From a virus (lineage: Duplodnaviria > Heunggongvirae > Uroviricota > Caudoviricetes), in IMG/VR virus record IMGVR_UViG_2645727901_000004: a stretch of DNA of 12,268 bases; one strand, 5' to 3'. Each line of letters starts with the position of its first letter. Position 1 is the first letter of the stretch. The notes beneath the pieces are model-generated. The model was not told the origin of the DNA. It did not search any database and worked only from the letters and a program-made list of their open reading frames with translations. Of the stretch, positions 1-12,268 are shown piece by piece. Position numbers and translations under genes: made by a program.

Positions 1-96
1 CGGGGAGGAAGGAAACTACCGGATGGAAAGAGTCCCCCTAAAGCAGACTGACAGACATCACAAATCCCCGGGTGGGGATTTGTGTATAAGAGACAG
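1..96. mobile_element. Partial insertion-element/transposon end (extends beyond window start). Minus-strand reading from 96 is CTGTCTCTTATACACA, matching the first 16 nt of the Tn5/IS50 mosaic end, followed by a perfect 9-bp-stem palindrome (61..82).
   Basis: Plus strand 81..96 TGTGTATAAGAGACAG is the reverse complement of the Tn5 mosaic-end core, with 17/19 identity over the full 19-bp end. Lambda-like H coding sequence ends exactly at this boundary. The palindrome at 61..82 is CAAATCCCC-GGGT-GGGGATTTG and contains CCCGGG. Only one end is visible, so the element type and size are unknown. Confidence 0.45.
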
Positions 97-431
97 CTGA
101 GCATGGGGATCATCCCGCCGAAGGAGTCCTTCACCTGACCACCCTGTTGCAGCAGGATCAGCCACGGACTTTGCCCGCCTGCAAGCTGCGTGACCACGTC
201 GGTGAACTGCGCAGGCAGCATACGCATGGCAGCTTTATACTGCCCGACGGAAATCCCCGCTTTCTGTGCAGCCAGTGCCTGTCGGCTCAGCGACTGTTCA
301 ACGACTGCCGCTGTTTTTTTCGCATCACTTTCCGTACCGGAAAAATGACGCCTGACTCTGGCCATCTGCTCGTCAAATCTGGCCGCATCCAGACTTAAAT
401 CAACGACCAGATCGCCTACCGGTTCAGCCAT
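97..431 (-). CDS. H: Tail tape measure protein gpH, N-terminal ~110 codons. Lambda-like sequence stops at 97; the frame stays open through the adjacent IR-like sequence to the window edge but encodes an atypical Cys/Pro/Gly-rich peptide.
   Basis: ATG at 431..429 overlaps the T stop by 8 nt. Manual translation gives MAEPVGDLVVDLSLDAARFDEQMARVRRHFSGTESDAKKTAAVVEQSLSRQALAAQKAGISVGQYKAAMRMLPAQFTDVVTQLAGGQSPWLILLQQGGQVKDSFGGMIPM, which matches lambda gpH as I remember it. After codon 110 it reads LSCLLYTNPHPGICDVCQSALGG... Confidence 0.75.
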
Positions 432-11222: not shown

Positions 11223-11690
11223 TTATTTCAGGCACTGAGTGCGGATATATTCCTGCGCCACTTCCAGCTGCTTCTGCATCAGCATCAACCGCTCTCTGAG
11301 AGTGAAATAATCCCGTTCAGCGGTGTCTGCCAGTCGGGGGCCGGTTGCATTATCCACGCCGGAGGTGGTGGGGGCTTCACGCACGGTACCGGGGCAGGTG
11401 GCGTTGATCCGCAGGCGCTTACGACCAGCGGCAACGTCAGCGCGCAGAGTTTCATTTTCAGCTCTCGCATCGGCTAATTCCCTCGAGTATCTGGCATCAA
11501 GTGCAGCAACATCACGCTGGCGCTGCTGCATATCAGTAATGGTTGCATTTGCCTGCTCCAGCTCACTGACTTTTTTATCGCGCTGCTCTTTGTAGGTTAT
11601 GGCGTTATCACGGTAATGATTCAGCCCCAGACTAAGCGCACCACAGGCCACCAGCAGGGCAATGATGACCACGCACAGTACGCGGTTCAT
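11223..11690 (-). CDS. Rz: Spanin inner-membrane subunit Rz (i-spanin, 155 aa)
   Basis: ORF track 11223..11690, MNRVLCVVIIALLVACGALSLGLNHYRDNAITYKEQRDKKVSELEQANATITDMQQRQRDVAALDARYSRELADARAENETLRADVAAGRKRL... N-terminal transmembrane segment plus coiled-coil periplasmic domain. Clearly homologous to lambda Rz but more diverged than the head proteins. Confidence 0.9.
   Translation of the reverse strand: MNRVLCVVIIALLVACGALSLGLNHYRDNAITYKEQRDKKVSELEQANATITDMQQRQRDVAALDARYSRELADARAENETLRADVAAGRKRLRINATCPGTVREAPTTSGVDNATGPRLADTAERDYFTLRERLMLMQKQLEVAQEYIRTQCLK
11285..11470 (-). CDS. Rz1: Spanin outer-membrane lipoprotein subunit Rz1 (o-spanin, ~60 aa), embedded in the +1 frame of Rz
   Basis: ORF track 11285..11470, MRELKMKLCALTLPLVVSACGSTPPAPVPCVKPPPPPAWIMQPAPDWQTPLNGIISLSESG. 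It has a lipobox-like LVVSAC and a proline-rich region, very similar to lambda Rz1 as recalled, and lies wholly inside Rz. Confidence 0.85.
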   Translation of the reverse strand: MRELKMKLCALTLPLVVSACGSTPPAPVPCVKPPPPPAWIMQPAPDWQTPLNGIISLSESG

Positions 11691-11865: not shown

Positions 11866-11899
11866 AAAACCCCGCTTGGTGCCAACAAACGGGGTTTTT
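11866..11899. terminator. Bidirectional rho-independent-terminator-like hairpin in the endolysin-Rz linker (AAAACCCCG...CGGGGTTTT with flanking T/A runs on both strands)
   Basis: Plus strand AAAACCCCG-CTTGGTGCCAACAAA-CGGGGTTTTT followed by ACTTTTATT. On the sense (minus) strand the stem is followed by UUUUGUGUUU. Confidence 0.45.
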
Positions 11900-11988
11900 A
11901 CTTTTATTCACTTACGTTTCGCCAGTTCGCAGGATTTCATGTTATCCGCCCGCGTGGCCATGCTTTATTTTTCAGCAAAATATTCTGC

Positions 11989-12268
11989 TTATCTGTCGAT
12001 ACCCCAGCACGCCAGCGCGCTCTCCTGGTCACGACGGGATACCTGACCGTAGCAGTTGTTTGAACGAATACGGCAGTCTCTGCCACCGTCCTTAATCCAC
12101 CAGCGAATCGCCTCACACGCTCCCCTGCGATCACCTGCATTAATTCGTTTATAAAACGTCGACGGGAAACACTTACCGGGACCAATGTTGTACGGACAGA
12201 ATGACGCGATCCCCGCTTTCTGGGGTTCGCTCAATGGCACTTTGATGTTTTTCTCCACCCACGCCAGC
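11989..12268 (-). CDS. R: Endolysin, lysozyme type (T4-lysozyme-like muramidase), C-terminal ~92 codons; 5' end lies beyond the window
   Basis: ORF open to the window edge: ...LAWVEKNIKVPLSEPQKAGIASFCPYNIGPGKCFPSTFYKRINAGDRRGACEAIRWWIKDGGRDCRIRSNNCYGQVSRRDQESALACWGIDR. This closely matches, from memory, the R lysozyme of Stx-type lambdoid phages such as 933W, and is not lambda's transglycosylase R. Confidence 0.85.
   Translation of the reverse strand, partial: LAWVEKNIKVPLSEPQKAGIASFCPYNIGPGKCFPSTFYKRINAGDRRGACEAIRWWIKDGGRDCRIRSNNCYGQVSRRDQESALACWGIDR

Follow-up and report, generated by a model that had tools for sequence, protein, structure and literature searches.

The first 96 bases of the window (the whole stretch of 12,268 bases that was analysed) are the left end of an insertion sequence, and the tail tape-measure gene H of a lambda-like E. 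coli prophage breaks off where they begin. We consider it highly probable (roughly 0.92) that the natural element ISEc13 (IS4 family, IS50/Tn5-like, 1550 bp) has transposed into H. The insertion point would be after H nucleotide 335, and the transposase gene would read in the direction of H. The window covers one junction and 96 nucleotides of the element; the transposase gene, the right terminal repeat, the other copy of the target duplication and the 3′ remainder of H would all be found outside it. The likeliest arrangement beyond window position 1, we infer, is the rest of the IS followed by H resuming.

The genes of the window lie on the minus strand and make up the late region of a lambda-like prophage; the finding is therefore to be read on the minus strand, from position 431 down to 1. 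Starting at the right edge of the window, the gene order on this strand is the C-terminal part of the endolysin gene, Rz, Rz1, Nu1, terminase A, W, portal, S49 protease/scaffold, D-like decoration protein, capsid protein E, FI, FII, Z, U, V, G and T, and then the start of H at window position 431. The endolysin gene (Phage_lysozyme, C-terminal part only, 11989-12268, minus strand) is cut by the window edge and is followed by Rz (11223-11690, minus strand) with an embedded Rz1-like ORF (11285-11470, minus strand); a terminator-like hairpin, AAAACCCCGCTTGGTGCCAACAAACGGGGTTTTT, is present at about 11866-11900. A homologous prophage, ∼98% identical to the window, resides in E. coli O157:H7 EDL933 (locus L004, 11618-17273). 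Its tape-measure gene is called at only 446 aa; next come 4.3 kb in which no genes are called, and then the head-tail genes of a second phage. EDL933 thus carries another, different truncation of the same tape-measure gene. Exact protein matching linked the window to this prophage through the tail tube protein, and through the large terminase to four other prophages, whose tail tube protein is a different one.

The 5′ part of H, cut by the insertion, occupies window positions 97..431 (minus strand), as seen from translation, from a match to the Pfam family TMP_2 and from DNA identity. The H-derived sequence consists of codons 1-111 plus 2 nt; its translation runs MAEPVG...DSFGGMIPMLS, after which the frame continues into the IS, read as CLLYTNPHPGICDVCQSALGG.... 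Residues 54-114 in the frame of H match positions 2-62 of the 208-position TMP_2 profile, and G and T adjoin H upstream, a synteny that matches lambda-type gpH. Intact homologues have ∼855 aa (855 aa in E. coli 536); gpH is cut at residue 111 of ∼855, with the rest of TMP_2 and the C-terminal Tape_meas_lam_C domain absent from the window. When the reverse complement of window positions 1-400 was compared by BLAST with 5,426 complete E. coli genomes, its first 304 nt matched genes annotated ‘phage tail tape measure protein’ in thousands of these genomes, at a DNA identity of 99.3%. Every match to an intact tape-measure gene ended at window position 97. As the DNA homology of H ends exactly there, the abrupt switch that a sequence-only reading of the window had placed at 96/97 is correct; that reading had followed H up to the residues GGMIPM, while H actually runs 5 nt further.

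In the alignment with the intact H of E. coli 536 the common part reads ...GATCCCCATG(C/T)TCAG; past the junction the intact gene goes on with GGGGCTTGCC, and the window with CTGTCTCTTATACACAAATCCCC.... Codon 111 of H is CTC (Leu) in the window (99-101, minus strand) versus TTC (Phe) in E. coli 536; this difference sits inside the predicted target duplication, adjoining the junction. The peptide that continues the H frame past the junction, described in the sequence-only reading as rich in Cys, Pro and Gly and unlike any tape measure, is the non-coding IS leader read in the frame of H. Read through this leader, the H frame would stop after 210 residues, and we rejected a genuine coding extension of H on these grounds.

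Window positions 1..96 (minus strand) correspond to nucleotides 1-96 of the 1550-bp element; read from 96 down to 1, they are identical at 96 of 96 positions to the left end of an annotated ISEc13 copy (locus L001). They form a non-coding leader 5′ of the transposase gene, which reads in the direction of H and begins 165 nt from the IS end, past window position 1. A 110-nt junction query (14 nt of H plus the 96 IS nt) was used in a sensitive BLAST search. It produced matches in 1610 of the 5426 complete E. coli genomes, at up to 31 places per genome, and also in plasmids of Escherichia, Shigella, Salmonella and others; many hits were 100% identical from the first base of CTGTCTC on. For the IS part of the query many E. 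coli records matched at 100%, and the number of records with identity of at least 99% was 552. Animal, water and human sources are represented among the hundreds of natural isolates with the same 96 nt. At all inspected loci with a complete element the 96-nt sequence stood ∼165 nt upstream of a gene for ‘IS4-like element ISEc13 family transposase’ (NCBI PGAP annotation in E. coli genomes, e.g. E2348/69). Judged by this identity, the element is ISEc13, a natural, catalogued, IS50-like member of the IS4 family, and the proposal of the sequence-only reading that an IS4-family element was inserted in gpH and truncated it was borne out. A search of the window and of one ISEc13 locus against Rfam returned no family.

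The 19-bp terminal inverted repeat (IRL), CTGTCTCTTATACACAAAT, was delimited by comparison with the Tn5/IS50 ends and lies at window positions 78..96 (minus strand). Complete ISEc13 copies are 1550 bp long and start with this same left end; their right end, read inward, is CTGTCTCTTGATCAGATCT, and in reference copies IRL agrees with the right end of its own element at 13 of 19 positions. Within IRL, at window positions 81..89 (minus strand; IS nt 8-16), a pattern match to the DnaA-box consensus TTATNCACA predicts a site, TTATACACA. The right end coincides at 19 of 19 positions, GATC Dam sites included (L001 4535-4553), with the sequence that we take to be the IS50 inside end (the same sequence is present in a mini-Tn5 primer), although the transposases of the two elements have clearly diverged. 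Other differences from IS50 and Tn5 are found in length (1550 bp in ISEc13, 1534 bp in IS50), in the perfect hairpin that ISEc13 has just inside its left end and in target choice, which is nearly random in Tn5 while ISEc13 strongly prefers CCCY-N8-RGGG. The target duplications are of similar length (8-9 bp in ISEc13, 9 bp in Tn5).

The 457-aa ISEc13 transposase aligned with Tn5 transposase structures (PDB 1MUH/4DM0) over residues 6-453 with E = 6e-84; the motifs EDTT, CDREAD and Y..R...E......K (Y-R-E-K) were kept in the alignment. In Pfam, Tnp_DNA_bind and DDE_Tnp_1 scored above the cut-off and the Tn5 dimerisation domain just below it. Transposase and end features of this kind define the IS50 subgroup of the IS4 family (PMC2266710). 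Still, ISEc13 is a homologue that has diverged from Tn5 transposase with its DDE and YREK residues kept, and with a left end at 17 of 19 positions to the IS50 outside end it is a relative of IS50 rather than IS50 proper. The differences from the outside end, CTGACTCTTATACACAAGT, are T at position 4 and A at position 18; the DnaA-box-like TTATACACA is kept in both (outside-end and mosaic-end sequences, as well as the report of a DnaA site in the Tn5 end, are from PMC3347997).

The first 16 nt of the ISEc13 end, CTGTCTCTTATACACA (window 96..81, minus strand), are identical at 16 of 16 positions to the Tn5 mosaic end, as the sequence-only reading had pointed out. With up to 2 mismatches allowed, CTGTCTCTTATACACA had one match in the window and none in any of 200 shuffles. 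Taken by itself, agreement with the first 16 nt of the mosaic end, CTGTCTCTTATACACATCT, would suit an engineered Tn5 derivative (mini-Tn5, EZ-Tn5) or an untrimmed Nextera/tagmentation adapter. However, ISEc13 has AA, not TC, at positions 17-18, giving 17 of 19 instead of 19 of 19; the next 77 nt are ISEc13 leader, not adapter, vector, marker or cassette; and hundreds of natural isolates carry these same 96 nt. We give practically no credence to an engineered origin, and the suggestion of a lab construct made in the sequence-only reading falls with it. The ISEc13 left end, like the mosaic end, joins the inside-end T at position 4 with the outside-end ATACAC core, but the mosaic end is engineered and hyperactive (Nextera/EZ-Tn5) while the ISEc13 end is natural and is followed by IS sequence. 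With the left end at 17 of 19 to both mosaic and outside ends and the right end at 19 of 19 to the inside end, the likeness is explained as homology of two natural relatives.

The target preference of ISEc13 was derived from 41 distinct left flanks taken from complete genomes, IMG/VR contigs and metagenome contigs (loci L001, L002, L009-L013, L015-L035 and L089-L139; window 97-108). C was observed at positions -13..-10 in 32-36 of the 41 sites, and position -9 was mostly T or C. Eleven complete copies had a recognisable duplication, of 8 bp in 8 of them and of 9 bp in 3; in all 11 a C-rich run, the duplication and a G-rich run followed each other, with CCCY exact in 10/11 and RGGG exact in 10/11. 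The target motif is therefore CCCY-N8(9)-RGGG, symmetric and strong. This preference is not described in the searchable literature mentioning ISEc13. Many ISEc13 sites resemble terminator stems just 3′ of genes, for example CCCTCCTTCGGGAGGG with a T-run (L011) and ...GAGGGGGCTTTTTTTT (L009).

The left flank in the window, CCCC followed by ATGCTCAG, fits the preferred target. The left arm CCCC lies at 105..108 (minus strand) and is assigned from the 41-site preference; ATGCTCAG, at 97..104 (minus strand), is the predicted left copy of an 8-bp target-site duplication, as judged from the 11 complete copies and the intact site of E. coli 536. The C-run of the window is at -12..-9, a less common register than the usual -13..-10 and one shared with L002 and L012. 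E. coli 536 has a single CCCY-N8-RGGG motif, CCCCATGTTCAGGGGG, in the 7304 bp around its intact H, exactly at the junction; the junction of the window falls directly after the N8 of a site of this type. By analogy with Tn5, DDE cut-and-paste transposition would proceed with the transposase bound to the 19-bp ends and would make staggered cuts in a CCCY-N8-RGGG target, in H CCCC-ATGYTCAG-GGGG, the expected product being a duplication of 8-9 bp. A simple insertion with an 8-bp duplication would read ...CCCCATGCTCAG-ISEc13-ATGCTCAGGGGGC....

The sequence-only reading had also named a chimeric or mosaic junction. In an assembly chimera the ISEc13 end would have been wrongly joined to an intact H; the region is hard to assemble, as the window ends within an element that exists in many copies, and no other sequence of the collections searched has the junction. 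On the other hand, the join is placed exactly at the first base of the IS terminal repeat and on the sole CCCY-N8-RGGG site in 7.3 kb of the H region, two requirements that a random misjoin is unlikely to meet together. We regard a chimera as very improbable. A recombination mosaic with another phage was rejected; the 96 nt have no phage homology and are part of an IS. Since the junction coincides with the first IS base and with the only preferred site in 7.3 kb, a genuine insertion is favoured over chimerism, and there is strong indirect evidence, drawn from the sequence, for such an insertion with the predicted duplication ATGCTCAG.

The exact left junction was absent from IMG/VR, from GTDB genome contigs and from metagenome contigs, and BLAST did not find it in the 5,426 complete E. 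coli genomes. A right junction predicted to consist of right repeat, ATGYTCAG and H was likewise absent from IMG/VR and the E. coli genomes. As the insertion was seen in none of the collections searched, the event at H codon 112 is probably specific to one strain or lineage.

The position at which the window ends has counterparts elsewhere. Several IMG/VR contigs (L017, L024, L025 and L026) likewise break off after precisely 96 nt of the ISEc13 left end, and several metaSPAdes contigs (L097, L102, L103 and L105) after 55 nt. L024, which stops at 96 nt, and L031 represent the same site, and in L031 the complete 1550-bp IS is present with the duplication GTTTATGC. De Bruijn graph assemblers produce fixed overhangs, such as these of 96 or 55 nt, when they meet a multicopy repeat; the end of the window is thus most likely a break made by a short-read assembler at such a repeat. 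The value 96 is presumably the k of one widely used assembler.

What lies past position 1 could in principle differ from a simple insertion: after the insertion of ISEc13, distal H and the tail genes downstream may have been lost through an IS-mediated deletion or through recombination between IS copies, or the 96 nt may be a solo left-end remnant. Four ISEc13 copies, L023 and L030 at full length and the internally shortened L098 (1414 bp) and L104 (1402 bp), have no matching duplications, which in L023 and L030 suggests rearrangement between IS copies; F-type plasmids carry a left-end remnant of ∼100 nt without transposase (L014); and in EDL933 the tape-measure gene is cut at 446 aa with a second prophage adjoining. 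Against this, the 96 nt of the window are 100% identical to active-looking copies while the plasmid remnant is only ∼95% identical, and where a contig that stops at 96 nt has a longer counterpart, the insertion turns out to be complete (L024 versus L031). We therefore rate a deletion or a remnant as unlikely, and a complete ISEc13 in H stays the preferred reading. The plasmid remnant itself (L014 1801-1902), ∼100 nt of the ISEc13 left end at ∼95% identity without a transposase gene, is carried by ∼180 F-type plasmids, with a site-specific integrase gene on one side and a replication initiation gene on the other.

Just inside the terminal repeat the leader contains a perfect hairpin, CACAAATCCCC-ACCC-GGGGATTTGTG (IS nt 13-38; window 59..84, minus strand), detected by an inverted-repeat scan and a minimum-free-energy fold. 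The palindrome of the sequence-only reading, its ACCC loop and its CCCGGG site (window 67-72) are all present, but the stem has 11 bp, not 9; it shares with the terminal repeat the inner seven bases of the latter, positions 13-19. We regard the CCCGGG site as incidental. All ISEc13 copies have the hairpin.

Relatives of the ISEc13 transposase (49-80% protein identity) come from Scandinavium, Pantoea, Buttiauxella, Alishewanella, Alteromonas and others. Their elements share a layout: the same 19-bp end, AAATCCC, a variable stem-loop, GGGGATTT, T6-7 and TTGAAC, with a GATC-containing stretch after TTGAAC, ∼100 nt before the start codon. Seven of them (L038, L043, L046, L053, L055, L071 and L083) have a homologous hairpin with T6-7 within the first ∼55 nt. 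In an alignment of ten ends a 12-pair helix had standard pairs in 108 of 108 cells, with four pairs changed on both sides; its covariation score was reached by none of 500 shuffles, and sliding the partner strand by 1-3 columns lowered pairing to 44-68%. Wobble G-U pairs occurred only on the inward-reading strand (the other strand would have C-A mismatches), which suggests that the hairpin acts in RNA transcribed into the element. A covarying hairpin with a T-run, as seen in the relatives, looks like an inward-facing terminator.

In comparison with sister elements the ISEc13 hairpin is shortened and ∼63 extra nt precede the T-run/TTGAAC; as a result the ISEc13 transposase starts 165 nt from the end and not ∼100 nt. 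Its 11-bp stem is followed by AUUUGUGAUGU, overlapping or past the stem, with no adjacent T-run. A terminator/promoter scan of one ISEc13 copy did not flag the hairpin, and the efficiency of termination in ISEc13 is therefore uncertain. Positioned upstream of the transposase promoter, the hairpin would stop transcription coming in from outside; most likely it serves to shield the transposase gene from such transcription as an intrinsic terminator. Protection of this kind is familiar from IS10 and IS50.

A second pairing was predicted in RNA folds between AGGGGGA (IS nt 58-64; window 33..39, minus strand) and the C-run of the target flank in read-through RNA. It was predicted in 33 of 41 real flanks versus 20 of 200 random flanks, and in the window would join 33-39 with 105-111. 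This pairing would enclose the terminal repeat and the hairpin of the read-through RNA in one long imperfect stem. The covarying left-end hairpin and the AGGGGGA pairing are not described in the searchable literature mentioning ISEc13.

One may imagine ISEc13 and its sisters as ‘palindrome-seeking’ IS50 relatives that combine CCCY-N8-RGGG targets, many of them terminator stems, with an inward terminator hairpin and, in ISEc13, re-pairing through AGGGGGA. We put this forward tentatively and would sooner doubt it than rely on it. If true, the three features would keep outside transcription away from the transposase gene and might give back to the upstream gene some of its termination. The searchable literature mentioning ISEc13 holds no description of such a scheme. 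The target choice of ISEc13, its kept left-end hairpin and the AGGGGGA pairing are modest leads for transposon specialists.

The case carries a practical warning, in that a natural end of the IS50 family can pass for the mosaic end of Tn5 or Nextera. These 96 bases ought to be kept rather than removed as adapter, and the end of the contig is best understood as a break in the assembly caused by a repeat.

ISEc13 also adjoins tail genes in other lambdoid prophage contigs, namely U (L020 119/120) and V (L030 1719/1720), so that hits of this sort in prophages are not unusual. IS629 in O157 prophages is an example of an IS inactivating lambdoid prophage genes. Other insertions in lambdoid prophage genes likewise have an IS splitting an essential morphogenesis gene; here the IS is a different one and so is the site. 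The element is already catalogued and routinely annotated, and an IS that splits a prophage gene is commonplace; what we see is ordinary prophage decay, not a lab construct. It adds one more known IS disabling a resident prophage and matters little for this window. Gene H is essential for tail assembly in lambda, and only 111 of ∼855 H codons precede the IS, so that this prophage is probably unable to make tails. The tape-measure gene should be annotated as disrupted and the prophage treated as probably tail-defective.
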